Shown in pieces: positions 48,138 through 53,968 of a DNA stretch of 64,000 nucleotides. The stretch lies in NCBI RefSeq assembly GCF_056746865.1, contig NZ_CM163382.1, one strand, 5' to 3'. The notes below the pieces were generated by a model. The model saw only the letters and a list, made by a program, of their open reading frames with translations. It searched no databases and had not been told where the DNA came from. How positions within the stretch are numbered: the first letter of the stretch is position 1; the number at the start of each line of letters is the position of its first letter. Made by a program: the position numbers and the translations under genes.

Positions 48138-50534
48138 ATGCACGAAAAGAACATCGCCCTGCTTTGTGATGAAGCCGACCGACTTTTGCAACTGAACATT
48201 AATCTGCTCCGGCAAATGGTTGAGGAGCCAGATGTGTTATCTGACAGTAAGAACGAAAACAGACTGCTTTTTGATAAACAGAAAGCACTGAAAAGAATTG
48301 AGGAGCTGGAGGGCGAACAAATCAAAACCGCCCGCAGGGAGATGGTGCTGGCTGTTGTCGGCACGATGAAAGCAGGCAAATCAACCACCATCAACGCCAT
48401 TGTGGGGCAGGAAATTCTGCCTAACCGTAACCGCCCCATGACCTCTGTACCGACGCTCATCCGCCACGTTCCCGGAAAAACTGAGCCGGTTCTCCATCTG
48501 GAACATATTCAGCCTGTCCGCAATTTATTAATCACACTGCAGGAAAAACTCGCCACCCCGGCAGGACAGCAGGTCGCACAGACCCTGCAGCAAACCGGGG
48601 ATACCCGCGAACTGCTGGATATTCTGACGGATGATGGCTGGCTCAAAAATGAATACCACGGGGAGGAGGAAATCTTTACCGGACTGGCATCGTTAAACGA
48701 TCTGGTTCGTCTTGCTGCGGCAATGGGGACTGAATTTCCTTTTGATGAATACGCAGAAGTGCAGAAACTGCCGGTGATCGACGTGGAATTCAGCCATCTG
48801 GTGGGGATGGATGCATGCCAGGGAACACTCACACTGCTGGATACCCCCGGCCCTAATGAGGCCGGACAACCGCAGATGGAAGTGATGATGCGGGATCAAC
48901 TGCAGAAAGCCTCTGCGGTTCTGGCTGTGATGGATTACACCCAGATGAACTCAAAAGCGGATGAAGACGTCCGTAAAGAGCTTAATGCCATTGCTGACGT
49001 ATCAGCCGGCCGCCTGTTTGTACTGGTCAATAAATTTGATGAGAAAGACCGCAATGGCGATGGGGCAGATGCCGTACGCCAGAAAGTTCCGGCAATGCTG
49101 AACAGCGATGTGCTGCCCGCCTCCCGCGTTTATCCCGGATCCTCACGCCAGGCATACCTGGCTAACCGTGCGCTTCATGAGTTACGGAAAAACGGAACCC
49201 TTCCTGTTGATGAAGCCTGGGTCGATGATTTTATCAGAGGTGCCTTCGGTTGCATGAAAAAAGAATACGTCTGTAAAGACAGTGAACTGGCAACTGAAGG
49301 GGCGACAGACCTGTGGGAAGGCTCACTTATCGATCAACTGATAACGGAAGTCATACAGAGCTCACATTCCAGAGCTGCGGCACTGGCGGTTGACTCTGCC
49401 GCCGCAAAACTGATGCAGAATGCAGAAAATATCAGTGAATACCTGTTGTTACGCCATCAGGGGCTACAGCAAAGCATTCAGTCACTGCAGTCGCATATCA
49501 CCAGCCTGCTTGCGGATATCCGGGAAATCGCGGACTGTCAGGAGCAGATGACCACTGATGTCAGAATGGCCATGGAGGAGATCGATACTAAAACCCGGGA
49601 ATTACTGACGGGGGTCTGCACCTCACTGGAAGAGGAGCTGAATGACTATTTCAGAAGCGGTAAACGCAAAGAACAGCAAATGCTGGAGGAAGAAGACGCA
49701 GAACAACGAAGGTCTCAGTCCGGATTATGGGGGAAAATTTCTCAATGGTCCGGTATCAACAACCAGGGCCGGGAGGATTACAGGAAACGAGATTTTGCCC
49801 CGGACAGCCCCGAAATAAAATTCAGTGATCGCAGGGAAGCCCTTGAACTGATGACGCAAATCGAATCGACCGTGACCAGCCTGCACCGTGAGGCTGAAGC
49901 ACAGTTCCGGCCTGAGCTGGAGAAAATCGTCAGCGGGATTGAAACAGGTTTTCGTGGCACGGCCCTGTACGCCACAGAAAACATTGCCGGTCGCATCAAT
50001 GCCCGCCTGGAGGATGAGGGCTTTACCGTAAAAATCAGTTTTCCGGCAGTCAGCCAGTTACAGACCCGGCTCGCGGTAAAAATAAATCTGAGTGCGCTTA
50101 TGGAGGAAAGAACGGAGACCGTCACCCGTCGCCGTCGGCAGAGTGGCGTATGGGGAACCGTTTGTCGATGGTTTGGCACCAGTGACCTGGGCTGGGAAAA
50201 CTATGACGAGGATGTGAGTCGCAGCGTGATCAATATCAACAAGGTCAGAGAGGAAGTTATGTCACTGACCCGGGCATATTTCGGGGAGCTGCAGGCATCC
50301 ATTGAGCAGGATATTAACCAGCCCGTCCGCCAGGAAATCGATGCCTTTTTCTGCGCATTCAGGGAGAAAGTTGAACAACTGCGTAACACGCTGATTCAGA
50401 GCTCTGAAGATCATAAACGCGATCAGCAGGCGCAGGAACGGCTTACCGGGCGACTTCAGGCATTAAATGAAAGGGTTCCTGAGCTCATTACTGACAGTAA
50501 GGCGCTGAGGGAAGAGCTGGAGACAATGCTGTGA
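48138..50534 (+). CDS. dynamin-like GTPase (bacterial dynamin-like protein)
   Basis: 798 aa; G1 GTMKAGKSTTINAIVG, G3 LLDTPGPNE, G4 VLVNKFD; long helical C-terminal half. Confidence 0.85.
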   Translation: MHEKNIALLCDEADRLLQLNINLLRQMVEEPDVLSDSKNENRLLFDKQKALKRIEELEGEQIKTARREMVLAVVGTMKAGKSTTINAIVGQEILPNRNRPMTSVPTLIRHVPGKTEPVLHLEHIQPVRNLLITLQEKLATPAGQQVAQTLQQTGDTRELLDILTDDGWLKNEYHGEEEIFTGLASLNDLVRLAAAMGTEFPFDEYAEVQKLPVIDVEFSHLVGMDACQGTLTLLDTPGPNEAGQPQMEVMMRDQLQKASAVLAVMDYTQMNSKADEDVRKELNAIADVSAGRLFVLVNKFDEKDRNGDGADAVRQKVPAMLNSDVLPASRVYPGSSRQAYLANRALHELRKNGTLPVDEAWVDDFIRGAFGCMKKEYVCKDSELATEGATDLWEGSLIDQLITEVIQSSHSRAAALAVDSAAAKLMQNAENISEYLLLRHQGLQQSIQSLQSHITSLLADIREIADCQEQMTTDVRMAMEEIDTKTRELLTGVCTSLEEELNDYFRSGKRKEQQMLEEEDAEQRRSQSGLWGKISQWSGINNQGREDYRKRDFAPDSPEIKFSDRREALELMTQIESTVTSLHREAEAQFRPELEKIVSGIETGFRGTALYATENIAGRINARLEDEGFTVKISFPAVSQLQTRLAVKINLSALMEERTETVTRRRRQSGVWGTVCRWFGTSDLGWENYDEDVSRSVININKVREEVMSLTRAYFGELQASIEQDINQPVRQEIDAFFCAFREKVEQLRNTLIQSSEDHKRDQQAQERLTGRLQALNERVPELITDSKALREELETML

Positions 50535-51436
50535 CTTCACCATTTATTCAACAAATTGCTGATAACCGGGTATGTCAGGTACTCACCTGTCTTCCTGAAA
50601 AATTTGTGGTTGATTTCGCAAACGGAATCGATGTTGCACAGGAGCATATCCGCACGGCCGGAGAGCGCACGTTCTTCCGGCGTTTAAAAGAGGGGCTGAC
50701 CGGCGAAGGCGCTGCACGGCAGAATGCCATCAATGCGTCGCTTGCACAGGGCGTTGAGGCGTCCCTGCGCTGGCTGACGGAGATGACAACGTCACTTGCC
50801 ACCACAAACTACGCGATTACCCGGGTAAACGACAGGGTCAGTTCACTGGTCAGTGATACAGCCAGGCTGGCGCATTATTCCGCAGATACGCGGGAGCAGT
50901 TACTCACCCTGGCCGATCAGGTTCACCATAAACTGAATCATCTTGAAGAAAAACTCCACCGTGTTGACCAGGTTCAGCGGGCGCAGTTACATCTTGAGCA
51001 GATATTCTCATGGTGGAGCGCCGGGCGATATGCGTCATTTTCCCCTGCCGGACGTTGTTATGTGGCACTTGAAGAGCTTCGCTGGGGCGCGTTTGGTGAT
51101 GTGATACGTCAGAGCGAAACAGGCCAGGTTAACCAGCTACTGGATATTCTCAGACATAAAGCATTAACGCAGATGGCACAGGAGAGTGGCGGTAGTGCAA
51201 CCGTGCGTCTGAACACTCTGGACTGGCTTGGTGGTCAGGGCCGGGAGCAGGCAGATAACGAGTGGCATGACGCGATTAACTGGCTGGGAGACTGGTGCAG
51301 TGAAGAGCAGCATCCGGTGATCTGGTCAACCACGCAGGCTGCAGAACACTTACCGGTTCGCATGCCTCGCCTCTGCTCTGCAGAACGCCTCTCTGAAAGT
51401 ATGGTCGATGAAATATTTCAGAAGGGGGCTGCATGA
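50531..51436 (+). CDS. hypothetical helical protein translationally coupled to the dynamin-like GTPase
   Basis: 301 aa; GTG start overlaps upstream TGA (GTGA at 50531..50534); no recognised motif. Confidence 0.65.
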   Translation: MTSPFIQQIADNRVCQVLTCLPEKFVVDFANGIDVAQEHIRTAGERTFFRRLKEGLTGEGAARQNAINASLAQGVEASLRWLTEMTTSLATTNYAITRVNDRVSSLVSDTARLAHYSADTREQLLTLADQVHHKLNHLEEKLHRVDQVQRAQLHLEQIFSWWSAGRYASFSPAGRCYVALEELRWGAFGDVIRQSETGQVNQLLDILRHKALTQMAQESGGSATVRLNTLDWLGGQGREQADNEWHDAINWLGDWCSEEQHPVIWSTTQAAEHLPVRMPRLCSAERLSESMVDEIFQKGAA

Positions 51437-52503
51437 GTACAGAAATGAAAACGGGGCTGGTGCTGTCCGGTGGCGGGGCGGTGGGCGCTTATCAGGCGGG
51501 AGTGGTTAAGGCACTGGCAGAGTGTGGTACACAGATCAGCATGGTTTCAGGGGCCAGCATTGGCGCATTCAATGGTGCCATTATCGCGGCCTCTCCCGAT
51601 CTGTCAGAAGCTGCCGTACGCCTGGAGGCGCTCTGGGATCATCTGGGGAATAATCAGGTGCTGTCGGTAAACAGATTGGTTTACTTTTCATTGCTGAAAA
51701 AATTGTTCCAGGCAATGAACCTCTGCCAGATCCCCGGACGTGCAGGAGCACTGCTTACGACGCTTCTTCGCCATATATCGACAATCAACGGGTTTGACAA
51801 TCTGATGGCTCAGCCGTTGTTGTCAGATGAGCCCCTGACAGCGCTGATGGATCATTATCTTGATACTGATGCTCTGGCAGACGGGCTACCGCTGTATGTG
51901 TCGCTGTACCCCACAGAAGGGGGCATGCAGGATATTATTGACTGCATTCGTGCTGAACTGGGTGTCGGAACCACGAAAAACGCCGTTTTTCAGCATATCC
52001 AGAGCCTGCCCCGCGGACAGCAGAAAGAGGCTCTGCTTGCGTCAGCCGCGCTGCCCCTGCTGTTCCGTCCCCGTGAGGTTCAGGGGACAATGTTCGGTGA
52101 TGGTGGTATGGGAGGATGGCGAAATATGCAGGGAAATACCCCTGTGACGCCTCTGGTCGATGCCGGATGCAATATGGTGATTGTGACGCATCTGAGTGAG
52201 GGTTCTTTATGGGATCGCCAGGCTTTTCCGGACACCACAATCCTTGAGATCCGTCCCCGGAAAAGGCTGAAATATGCAGGTGATGGTGGCAACAGCGGCG
52301 GTCTGCTCAGTTTTACATCGGCACATACCGACGCCTGGCGTCAGCAGGGCTATGAAGACACGATGCTGGCGATGGAGCATATCCGGAAACCGCTGGCAGC
52401 ACGTCAGGCACTGACCCGGTCAGAGGCGGTATTGCAGAAAAGCCTGGATATAACGGAAGAGGCAGATTTGGCACTGAGAAACGCGATGGCCCGGATTAAA
52501 TAA
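51433..52503 (+). CDS. patatin-like phospholipase
   Basis: 356 aa; GGGAVGAYQAG oxyanion motif, GASIGA (GxSxG) nucleophile, DGG catalytic Asp; ATGA overlap with the upstream gene. Confidence 0.85.
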   Translation: MSTEMKTGLVLSGGGAVGAYQAGVVKALAECGTQISMVSGASIGAFNGAIIAASPDLSEAAVRLEALWDHLGNNQVLSVNRLVYFSLLKKLFQAMNLCQIPGRAGALLTTLLRHISTINGFDNLMAQPLLSDEPLTALMDHYLDTDALADGLPLYVSLYPTEGGMQDIIDCIRAELGVGTTKNAVFQHIQSLPRGQQKEALLASAALPLLFRPREVQGTMFGDGGMGGWRNMQGNTPVTPLVDAGCNMVIVTHLSEGSLWDRQAFPDTTILEIRPRKRLKYAGDGGNSGGLLSFTSAHTDAWRQQGYEDTMLAMEHIRKPLAARQALTRSEAVLQKSLDITEEADLALRNAMARIK

Positions 52504-52833
52504 AGACGCCCCAAAGAAACGCCACCGCCTGTGGTGGTGTTTTTCCTGTCTGGTGTTATTGAAAATATTTTCATATATATATTACCTGAGAGAAAGTTTT
52601 ACCCCTCACCTGTCAATTCACTCACTGGAAATTTAATTATGAAATTACCTGTAAAGTTATTAATGAGCCTTATATCTCTGGTCAGCGTTATTGCACGTGC
52701 CGGGGAATATAAAAATTACAGCCGGGATGAAATAAAATACTGGCGATATACATCATACAAGGGGGGGAAACTTCCGGAAGGTTTCACTGATGAGAAATTT
52801 TCCAGCGCCATTTACAACGGAAGAATATTTACA

Positions 52834-53322
52834 ATGAAACGTTTACATACCCTTATGTTATTTCTGGCGGTTCTGTTCACGGGCTTTAACTTTAACGCAG
52901 AAGCGGCTACCGTAAAACAAGCTCTTAGTTGTAACCCGGAAGCCTGGGCTGAACAACCTGGAGCGTGTCCATCAACGTACGAGTTGTACGAAGGTGACGC
53001 TACCTACAAAGCCGCTATCGACAAAGCATTAAAACCGGTCGGACTGAGCGGCATGTTCGGTAAAGGCGGCTATATGGATGGCCCTGGTGGAGGTATCACG
53101 CCAGTAAACATTAACGGTACAGTCTGGTTCCAGGGCGACGGTTGCAAAGCCAATACCTGCGGCTGGGACTTTATCGTAACACTCTATAACCCAAAAACCC
53201 ATGAAGTTGTTGGCTACCGTTACTTTGGTTTAGATGACCCGGCCTACCTGGTTTGGTTCGGTGAAATTGGCGTGCATGAATTCGCGTATCTGGTGAAAAA
53301 CTACGTAGCTGCGGTTAACTAA
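52834..53322 (+). CDS. periplasmic protein, possibly Ivy-like (lysozyme-inhibitor family)
   Basis: signal peptide MKRLHTLMLFLAVLFTGFNFNAEA; GCKANTCGWDF resembles the Ivy CKPHDCG loop; same frame stays open upstream to 52531. Confidence 0.45.
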   Translation: MKRLHTLMLFLAVLFTGFNFNAEAATVKQALSCNPEAWAEQPGACPSTYELYEGDATYKAAIDKALKPVGLSGMFGKGGYMDGPGGGITPVNINGTVWFQGDGCKANTCGWDFIVTLYNPKTHEVVGYRYFGLDDPAYLVWFGEIGVHEFAYLVKNYVAAVN

Positions 53323-53337
53323 TTTAAGGAGTCTATC

Positions 53338-53748
53338 ATGAAAACTTTTATCAAAACTTTACTCGTTGCTGTAACTATTCTGTTCTCTGTCTTCGCTACT
53401 GCGAAACAAGTAAAACTGCCAAATAACATCAAATACGTTAATACTACAGAAGCGTTTTCCTGTACCGAAATTGACGGTATGAATTGCCAGACAAAGAATC
53501 AGTTCAACTATAAAGATAACAGCTATGTTTTCGTGCTTGAACGTGGTGGTGCCTGGTGCTACGACTACACTGTCTCGGTAGTTAACCTGAAAACCGGGAA
53601 AGCACAAATGATTGAATACGGGGACAATCAACTGTGCTCAGGTAGCAACAAACCGTTCTTCGAAATCAAAAATGGCGTACCGACGGTAGGAGTCATCGAC
53701 ACATCCGGAAAACCTGTCGTTGTAGCCCAGGACAAACTTAAAATCTAA
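53338..53748 (+). CDS. small exported hypothetical protein
   Basis: 136 aa with N-terminal signal peptide and four Cys. Confidence 0.55.
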   Translation: MKTFIKTLLVAVTILFSVFATAKQVKLPNNIKYVNTTEAFSCTEIDGMNCQTKNQFNYKDNSYVFVLERGGAWCYDYTVSVVNLKTGKAQMIEYGDNQLCSGSNKPFFEIKNGVPTVGVIDTSGKPVVVAQDKLKI

Positions 53749-53968
53749 GGAGTAAACCATGCGTTTCTCTGCACATTATTAATATCAAAGGTAAATACAG
53801 CCCCAGCCATTGTTACCGGAAAGCCGCTTAATGCGTGGCTCGCCAGTGAAAGGCCTCTCAGACAATAAACCTTATTCATTTCACCCGTCAGGCCGCGTCT
53901 TCTCCGGGAGACGCGGCTTTTTTCATTTATTGCACCAGTAAATCTTAACCACCGATAAGGAGCAAAGT

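Follow-up and report, generated by a model that had tools for sequence, protein, structure and literature searches.

Ivy-type inhibitors and a related gene in an Escherichia coli island

Ivy (inhibitor of vertebrate lysozyme; YkfE in Escherichia coli, PA3902 in Pseudomonas aeruginosa; Pfam family PF08816; structures 1GPQ, 1XS0, 1UUZ and 4PS6) is a periplasmic protein that carries a Sec signal peptide and has been reported to inhibit lytic transglycosylases besides lysozyme (Clarke et al. 2010, as cited in PMC3660660). Here we analyse a 64,000-nucleotide (nt) stretch of an Escherichia coli chromosome (contig NZ_CM163382.1 of RefSeq assembly GCF_056746865.1; hereafter the window), in which an integrative island of the CP4-44/CP4-57 type of Enterobacterales contains a gene for a predicted periplasmic protein of 162 amino acids (aa). 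This Ivy-like gene is preceded by an in-frame extension, together with which it is annotated as a 227-aa protein, and is followed by a second gene, ORF2 (open reading frame 2), for a predicted exported protein of 136 aa. In our best overall explanation, to which we assign a probability of roughly 60%, the pair is the remnant of an island-borne gene array, the first gene encodes an Ivy-fold periplasmic inhibitor, the upstream extension is a relic left by a deletion, and ORF2 encodes a separate protein.

The closest described protein is Hypo_04657 of E. coli O121, which has the same CKANTC loop and evidently belongs to the same family and allele type. A 2024 preprint called it Ivy-like from an AlphaFold superposition on 1XS0 (10.1101/2024.04.20.590424). 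The Ivy likeness of this protein has therefore already been described, and what is new here are the chimeric reading frame, the variation of the loop between alleles, and the gene's array and synteny context. Unlike our analysis, the preprint modelled the 227-aa form and read its two N-terminal hydrophobic helices as a transmembrane 'domain'; the extension was not recognised as a gene relic, and the effects of downstream genes were not separated.

Outside E. coli, the nearest relatives (25–38% identity) are proteins of 150–316 aa named 'Ivy family c-type lysozyme inhibitor' from Salmonella, Pectobacterium, Klebsiella plasmids and Chromobacteriaceae (WP_240776469.1, WP_342414257.1, WP_228706714.1), which share an N-terminal cysteine pair with the window protein. 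In Enterobacterales, their genes occupy the same island slot, just upstream of genes for DUF905/DUF932, anti-restriction, RadC and CbeA/CbtA proteins. Most of them differ from the window protein by a C-[EKQ]-x-H-N-C loop that retains a histidine. There are also 314–316-aa forms with an extra C-terminal domain resembling the product of an array gene that we call gene D, and none of these relatives adjoins the dynamin-patatin operon that lies upstream of the Ivy-like gene in the window.

The region is identical or nearly so in E. coli strain 4/2-1 and in many other strain chromosomes, and at least 80% of positions 52,480–53,330 is present in 1,889 of 5,426 complete E. coli genomes, those of O157:H7 and Nissle 1917 being among them. 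Because of this distribution, and because the ratio of nonsynonymous to synonymous polymorphism (pN/pS) is 0.06–0.34 for the Ivy-like part and ORF2, the locus is no chance ORF. Comparison loci are labelled L002–L022 below, with coordinates counted within each locus.

Indirect evidence for a diverged Ivy superfamily member

The first-pass annotation had likened the protein to Ivy on the strength of its signal peptide and cysteine loop, and this likeness is borne out by its relatives and by its predicted structure. A phmmer search against 1.8 billion representatives retrieved the relatives at 25–38% identity with E = 3e-16 to 1e-4, and all nine that were tested exceed the Pfam gathering threshold of PF08816. 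A tblastn search additionally gave a direct match to an Ivy-family gene on Klebsiella plasmids (E = 8e-11). When the families were combined into one profile and compared with the PDB, E. coli Ivy was found at E = 1e-9 (1GPQ/1XS0) and Pseudomonas aeruginosa Ivy at about 1e-7 (4PS6/1UUZ). The structural prediction points the same way. An AlphaFold2 model computed without templates reached a predicted local distance difference test score of 87.3 and a predicted template-modelling (TM) score of 0.78, and the top eight Foldseek hits in the PDB were all Ivy chains (E = 1e-4 to 1.6e-2, probability 1.00, target-normalised TM score 0.63–0.72); beyond these chains, the PDB search returned nothing better than E > 1. 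The predicted fold is the Ivy fold, a central antiparallel sheet with flanking helices.

Several results weigh against this assignment. A Pfam scan of the window protein gave no match, PF08816 included, and its identity to Ivy is 16–20%. Against the NCBIfam Ivy model NF007443, the window protein scored E = 0.19 and a paralogue (P0014) 3.9e-4, both far below the cut-off. Scans of the Ivy-like protein and ORF2 against Pfam, NCBIfam and PADLOC yielded nothing significant, and neither did phmmer with the Ivy-like protein against PDB sequences. A profile from the E. coli alleles alone found Ivy in the PDB at E of about 1; a mannanase match at 0.018 in the same search was judged spurious. Since a direct Pfam match is lacking and the E. 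coli profile reaches Ivy only at this level, the sequence link is transitive. We conclude that membership of the Ivy superfamily, as a diverged branch, is supported, but only indirectly. With regard to origin, tblastn found no match to the Ivy-like gene in 50,697 phage records, and no Ivy-fold protein was found among the viral structures of BFVD.

The comparison of the loops is more ambivalent. Cys104 and Cys109 of the window protein, which enclose the residues KANT, are invariant in the family and align with the cysteines of the CKPHDC loop in 1GPQ, 1XS0 and 4PS6. The loop had initially been described as Cys-x5-Cys, but GCKANTCG has four residues between its cysteines, which is the C-x4-C spacing of Ivy. 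Both loops are disulfide-closed and keep a lysine after the first cysteine. A point against Ivy-like inhibition is that Ivy's inhibitory-loop histidine is replaced by asparagine in CKANTC, and the aspartate is likewise absent; the motif of Ivy orthologues proper, CKPHDC with its active-site-inserting histidine, is thus not found in the window allele. Twelve E. coli alleles display the loop types CKANTC, CKANAC, CKSNAC, CKSDAC and CKAHAC, of which only CKAHAC contains a histidine and none a proline or aspartate, and the strand entering the loop is among the most variable stretches of the mature protein. Further differences from Ivy are about 25 additional N-terminal residues with a second, invariant cysteine pair (Cys33/Cys45), location on a mobile island and high polymorphism.

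These loop data bear on whether the protein could be a true inhibitor of animal lysozyme, that is, an extra, island-borne Ivy serving colonisation or virulence. The fold, the loop position and the conserved loop lysine would suit such a role, as would the histidine retained by paralogues with CKAHAC and the wide occurrence in gut and pathogenic E. coli, O157:H7 and Nissle 1917 among them. However, the window allele has no histidine and carries threonine in place of aspartate, and E. coli already possesses a chromosomal ivy. Moreover, the gene accompanies anti-restriction and toxin-antitoxin modules, also in islands of plant-associated Pectobacterium, and what induces a paralogue is lysogeny rather than a host cue. 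We therefore consider a host-directed lysozyme inhibitor unlikely. Because CKANTC lacks the histidine and because the loop and its entering strand vary between alleles, the target is probably not a vertebrate c-type lysozyme; a variable enzyme from phages, other mobile elements or competitors appears more likely.

The annotated 227-aa protein is probably a chimera

The reading frame is open from 52,531 to 53,322 and contains two in-frame start codons, an ATG at 52,639 (227 aa) and an ATG at 52,834 (162 aa). The NCBI Prokaryotic Genome Annotation Pipeline (PGAP) calls the same 227-aa ORF that the first-pass annotation had pointed out (52,639–53,322, WP_000775500.1) and, downstream of it, ORF2 (53,338–53,748, WP_000846713.1), both as 'hypothetical protein'. 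The two signal-like segments noted in the long ORF also have the anatomy of Sec signal peptides, as judged by simple rules on n-region, core and cleavage site: each combines a basic n-region, a hydrophobic core of 12–13 residues and an A-x-A site. The segment of the extension reads MKLPVKLLMSLISLVSVIARA, with GEY after the predicted cleavage site, and that of the Ivy-like gene reads MKRLHTLMLFLAVLFTGFNFNAEA, with ATV after it. The latter has Lys2 and Arg3 in its n-region, a 13-residue core and AEA followed by A at the cleavage site, so that residues 1–24 form the predicted signal peptide and about 138 aa remain in the mature protein. Sums of membrane-insertion energies over 19 residues are positive for both segments (+3.7 and +5.2 kcal/mol, the second segment having +3.7), and the segments are therefore signal-like rather than transmembrane-like.

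The source of the extension is a gene for a 180-aa exported protein, gene A, which is intact in paralogous islands at the same distance 3' of the patatin gene (L007:5098–5640, L010:2001–2543 and SID94_RS19705 of E. coli MP1). The extension aligns over its whole length with the first ~62 residues of gene A. In BLAST comparisons, window positions 52,766–52,820 match gene A, and those from 52,827 onward match the leader of the Ivy-like gene, which places the junction between 52,820 and 52,827. Here a deletion joined the front of gene A to the Ivy-like gene. In unfused islands, gene A is followed by gene C (128–130 aa, intact in L017) or its remnants and then by the Ivy-like gene, which has a Shine-Dalgarno sequence of its own and is preceded, six codons before its ATG, by a stop codon. 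The deletion, of about 0.7–0.9 kb, took gene A codons ~63–180 with the stop codon, gene C and the native ribosome-binding site of the Ivy-like gene; by chance it left the frames joined, creating a 195-nt in-frame extension that is probably no part of the working protein. The annotated 227-aa protein is thus probably a chimera. The idea that the extension might be a separate small gene that lost its stop codon comes near to this but is not exact: what remains is the 5' third of a 180-aa gene, the rest of which, stop codon included, a deletion removed along with gene C.

The pattern of substitutions shows that the extension evolves like a pseudogene, in neutral decay. In the window lineage, the strong Shine-Dalgarno sequence of gene A (−8.8 kcal/mol) has been weakened to −3.3 kcal/mol. 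Fused alleles differ in it by 2–7 nonsynonymous and 0–1 synonymous changes, and a more distant allele from E. coli O146 (L016, GCA_018098325.1) differs from the window by 12 nonsynonymous and 2 synonymous changes (pN/pS 1.6). For the same two loci, pN/pS is 0.23 in the Ivy-like gene, 0.34 in ORF2 and 0.16 in the patatin gene, the last of which also falls within the range of 0.06–0.34 between alleles; Fisher's exact test of the extension against the Ivy-like gene gives p = 0.004. L016 has the same junction (2806–3000), and its extension contains a TGG-to-TGA change at codon 35 as well as a replacement of Ser16 by Arg within the hydrophobic core. Both the Ivy-like gene and ORF2 remain intact in this allele, and the patatin gene of L016 is split into two ORFs (1600–2505 and 2530–2670).

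Translation most likely starts at ATG 52,834, and the product would be exported by its own Sec signal peptide. This start is favoured because every unfused relative begins there, because L016 keeps an intact gene without an open extension, and because a product from 52,639 would carry a second, uncleavable hydrophobic segment that might mislocalise the disulfide-bonded domain. Alternatively, the 227-aa ORF could be the real product, with translation from 52,639, cleavage of the first signal peptide and a second segment that tethers the Ivy domain to the inner membrane or keeps it cytoplasmic. PGAP annotates this form and the preprint modelled it, and the window, L002, L003, L012 and L013 all have the frame open. 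The Ivy-like gene lost its native Shine-Dalgarno sequence in the deletion, and pairing is equally weak at both starts (−3.3 kcal/mol at 52,639 and −3.5 kcal/mol at 52,834), values that do not allow a choice between the starts by Shine-Dalgarno strength. We nevertheless regard a 227-aa product as improbable: its extra part is pseudogene-like, the L016 nonsense codon coexists with intact downstream genes, and all unfused relatives are simple secreted proteins. In addition, the second segment, with a core of 12–13 residues and +3.7 kcal/mol, resembles a signal peptide, and a stop-transfer orientation would place a domain with two disulfides in the cytoplasm.

Other observations weigh against our preferred explanation, beginning with the weak Shine-Dalgarno pairing at both starts. 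The extension remains open in nearly all alleles sampled. It is also near-identical among fused alleles, whereas pS reaches 0.13–0.5 downstream of it. This pattern points to a recombination mosaic, so that part of the purifying selection on the Ivy domain may be older than the fusion. Finally, disrupted copies occur, with an internal stop in L012 and insertion sequence (IS) elements in L004 and L005, and a truncated 213-aa form is common (cluster P0004, 364 sequences). The elements that cut or abut the Ivy-like gene are IS21 (ISEc12), IS1A and IS3 (L004:2660–3004, L005:2788–3587, L003:1732–2522).

The chimera also seems to have affected annotation. Ivy-like paralogues of 160 aa, although intact, are marked by PGAP as pseudogenes ('incomplete; missing N-terminus'; Table 1), apparently because the pipeline measures them against the chimeric 227-aa ORF as if it were full-length.

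ORF2 and the remnant of a secreted-protein gene array

Intact arrays, found on an Enterobacter plasmid and in two other assemblies, comprise in this order genes for a YfjT-like protein (153 aa), gene C (130 aa), the Ivy-like protein (160 aa), ORF2 (136 aa) and gene D (129 aa; L017:3920–4309), with further genes after them. Inspection of the translations indicates a signal-peptide-like N-terminus in all five listed proteins. Window positions 52,827–53,780 align with L017:2994–3942, and the seven-codon mini-ORF behind ORF2 (Table 1) is the truncated start of gene D. The window locus is best explained as the eroded remainder of such a small secreted-protein gene array carried as island cargo. A further deletion scar lies at 53,827–53,868, which encodes LNAWLASERPLRQ and a stop codon, the 3'-terminal part of a DUF905 gene; L010 (3570–3806) and a Klebsiella plasmid have this gene intact.

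Salmonella, Pectobacterium and a Klebsiella plasmid have an island of the same backbone, with the Ivy-like gene in the equivalent slot but with neither dynamin nor patatin genes; the gene therefore belongs to the island rather than specifically to that operon. The earlier remark on its placement beside the dynamin-patatin operon is correct for the window, and a paralogue is co-induced with the operon in MP1, but the link is not obligatory. The same three sources contain Ivy-like proteins of 312–316 aa (L014:7001–7945, L015:3795–4745 and L019:5998–6936, respectively), whose cysteine-rich C-terminal domain is weakly similar to gene D (BLASTP 8e-4; phrog_5248 at 3e-4). This may represent a domain fusion linking the functions of the Ivy-like protein and gene D.

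ORF2 begins 15 nt past the stop codon of the Ivy-like gene behind a strong Shine-Dalgarno sequence (−8.7 kcal/mol). Its N-terminus is signal-like, reading MKTFIKTLLVAVTILFSVFATA with KQ after the predicted cleavage site (ATA/KQ); a second, predicted exported protein of 136 aa is accordingly encoded downstream, as had been proposed, and export of both proteins is consistent with their sequences. ORF2 has four invariant cysteines and a predicted all-beta fold. It is confined to E. coli and close relatives (63–100% identity), and its sole family match is phrog_8968 (E = 2.6e-45). Pfam, NCBIfam and fold searches detected no relative of known function, the fold search returning generic beta-meander and propeller fragments only. 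PliC/MliC, PliI and PliG are small exported or lipid-anchored proteins of Gram-negative bacteria and hence candidate relatives, but ORF2 resembles none of them in sequence or fold, and the suggestion that it too might be a lysozyme inhibitor finds no support in a resemblance to any family of such inhibitors. We predict a separate periplasmic all-beta protein with two likely disulfides.

Similar cysteine spacing prompted a comparison of ORF2 with the C-terminal domain of the 314-aa Ivy-like proteins of Salmonella and Pectobacterium, and homology was rejected (BLASTP E ≥ 2; hhalign probability 0.6%). Comparisons of gene D with ORF2 (BLASTP E = 0.2) and with gene C (E = 1.2) were not significant either. 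ORF2 is not an obligatory partner of the Ivy-like gene, given that islands of the L007 and MP1 types lack it. In islands without ORF2, the sequence past the Ivy-like stop codon is homologous to the window sequence past ORF2, and similar stretches of about 18 nt with TAAGGAGT...ATG flank ORF2 at 53,323–53,340 and 53,744–53,761. This arrangement suggests that ORF2 is gained or lost as a cassette at repeats containing the Shine-Dalgarno sequence.

The array could also be read as a set of immunity proteins: its several small periplasmic proteins are unrelated to one another, they have diversified strongly between alleles, and each is encoded by a cassette-like gene with its own Shine-Dalgarno sequence. 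The Ivy-like protein would then be an orphan immunity-type protein against peptidoglycan-glycosidase toxins of competitors, such as type VI effectors or lysozyme-like bacteriocins, and ORF2 and the other array proteins would provide further immunities. The MP1 island also carries contact-dependent inhibition loci. On the other hand, none of the loci examined has a cognate toxin gene in the vicinity, and PADLOC, Pfam and NCBIfam gave no immunity-family matches, which leaves an immunity role doubtful.

It is also conceivable that the gene pair is decaying cargo without a present function, which lost its ribosome-binding site and persists through the young age of the island and through recombination. 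The weak pairing at both starts, the many gene remnants in the region (gene A, gene D, DUF905) and the frequency of disrupted copies would fit this scenario. We consider it very unlikely, as about 1,900 complete genomes contain an intact gene, the cysteines are invariant, the low pN/pS values given above hold for both genes, a knockdown phenotype has been reported, and a paralogue is strongly expressed in lysogens. The array-remnant reading, with a working Ivy-like protein, remains our preferred one.

Possible function in the periplasm

By analogy with Ivy, the likeliest function of the protein is to inhibit, in the periplasm, an enzyme that cleaves peptidoglycan and that would differ between alleles. 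After cleavage of the signal peptide behind AEA, the protein would fold in the periplasm into the Ivy fold with an additional N-terminal disulfide, and its protruding C-x4-C loop would plug the active-site cleft of an enzyme of the lysozyme or lytic transglycosylase type.

Two published observations bear on the function of this family. CRISPR interference (CRISPRi) knockdown of the CKANTC protein Hypo_04657 in E. coli O121 is reported to raise the efficiency of plating of T7 (10.1101/2024.04.20.590424). In E. coli MP1, the five-gene cluster SID94_19700–19720 comprises the most induced genes in Kapi1 lysogens by RNA sequencing (RNA-seq; PMC12922286). The paper discusses only the dynamin, RdcB-like and patatin genes of this cluster. 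According to the RefSeq record, and assuming that GenBank and RefSeq locus-tag numbers correspond, its five genes (L022:9484–15355; NZ_CP139039.1 4061483–4067354) encode dynamin, an RdcB-like protein, patatin, gene A and an Ivy-like paralogue. A caveat for the knockdown is that CRISPRi is polar, so that the effect on T7 could stem from ORF2 or from genes further downstream.

The Ivy-like protein can be tentatively proposed as a periplasmic factor against phages or other mobile elements, a proposal that we regard as possible rather than probable. It would block peptidoglycan-cutting enzymes of phage entry (virion transglycosylases like T7 gp16) or exit (endolysins), the hypervariable loop would be the record of an arms race, and the lysogeny-induced five-gene unit with a dynamin-like GTPase and patatin would delay or prevent lysis. 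The other secreted proteins of the array would possibly act together with the Ivy-like protein.

Gene neighbourhood and feature coordinates

The coordinates of the locus and of the misannotated paralogues are given in Table 1. The RdcB/YjcZ-like gene is intact in the window, and the copy of strain 4/2-1, which differs at 7 positions, carries a pseudogene annotation with an internal stop. For the dynamin and patatin neighbours, PADLOC matches stayed below threshold (LeoBC, 8.6e-5; a CBASS-type phospholipase, 1e-4), and these genes are therefore not assignable to a known defence system. The hairpin behind the patatin gene may partly separate the transcripts, and RNA-seq of the paralogous cluster suggests co-induction across the equivalent position.

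Table 1 Features of the island locus in the window and paralogues flagged as pseudogenes
Feature	Coordinates	Strand	Remarks
Dynamin-family gene	48138-50534		First in gene order
RdcB/YjcZ-like gene	50531-51436		GTG start overlaps dynamin stop codon; end overlaps patatin start
Patatin-like phospholipase gene	51433-52503
Terminator-like hairpin with T-run	52523..52549	+	Just 3' of patatin stop codon; consensus match only
Upstream extension, relic of gene A	52639..52826	+	First ~62 codons: signal peptide plus ~41 residues
Ivy-like gene, 162-aa precursor	52834..53322	+	Unfused paralogues (160-161 aa) begin at the same ATG
Loop codons C-K-A-N-T-C	53143..53160	+	From profile alignment to 1GPQ/1XS0/4PS6
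ORF2, predicted exported protein of 136 aa	53338..53748	+
Mini-ORF MRFSAHY plus stop, seven codons	53759..53782	+	Preceded by a perfect Shine-Dalgarno sequence; remnant of the gene D start
Strong terminator-like hairpin, 13-bp stem	53890..53929	+	Closes the two-gene unit ahead of the DUF932 gene
DUF932, anti-restriction, yeeS (RadC/JAB), yeeT and cbeA/cbtA genes			After ORF2, in this order
Mis-flagged Ivy-like paralogue	L010:2980-3468
Mis-flagged Ivy-like paralogue	L011:3235-3723
Mis-flagged Ivy-like paralogue	L022:9484-9972		E. coli MP1 SID94_RS19700

Implications

The gene pair occurs in about a third of complete E. coli genomes and is called 'hypothetical' everywhere. With the chimera apparently serving as the standard, intact 160-aa paralogues are labelled as N-terminally truncated pseudogenes, and structural or functional studies that start from the 227-aa form, as the preprint did, would carry along a hydrophobic tail of no relevance. 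Recognition of the Ivy type provides a concrete and cheap hypothesis, namely that the protein inhibits a muramidase or a lytic transglycosylase, perhaps one from a phage, and the T7 knockdown phenotype points in that direction. If the anti-phage proposal is true, the protein would form a layer of defence that acts in the periplasm and not on nucleic acids.

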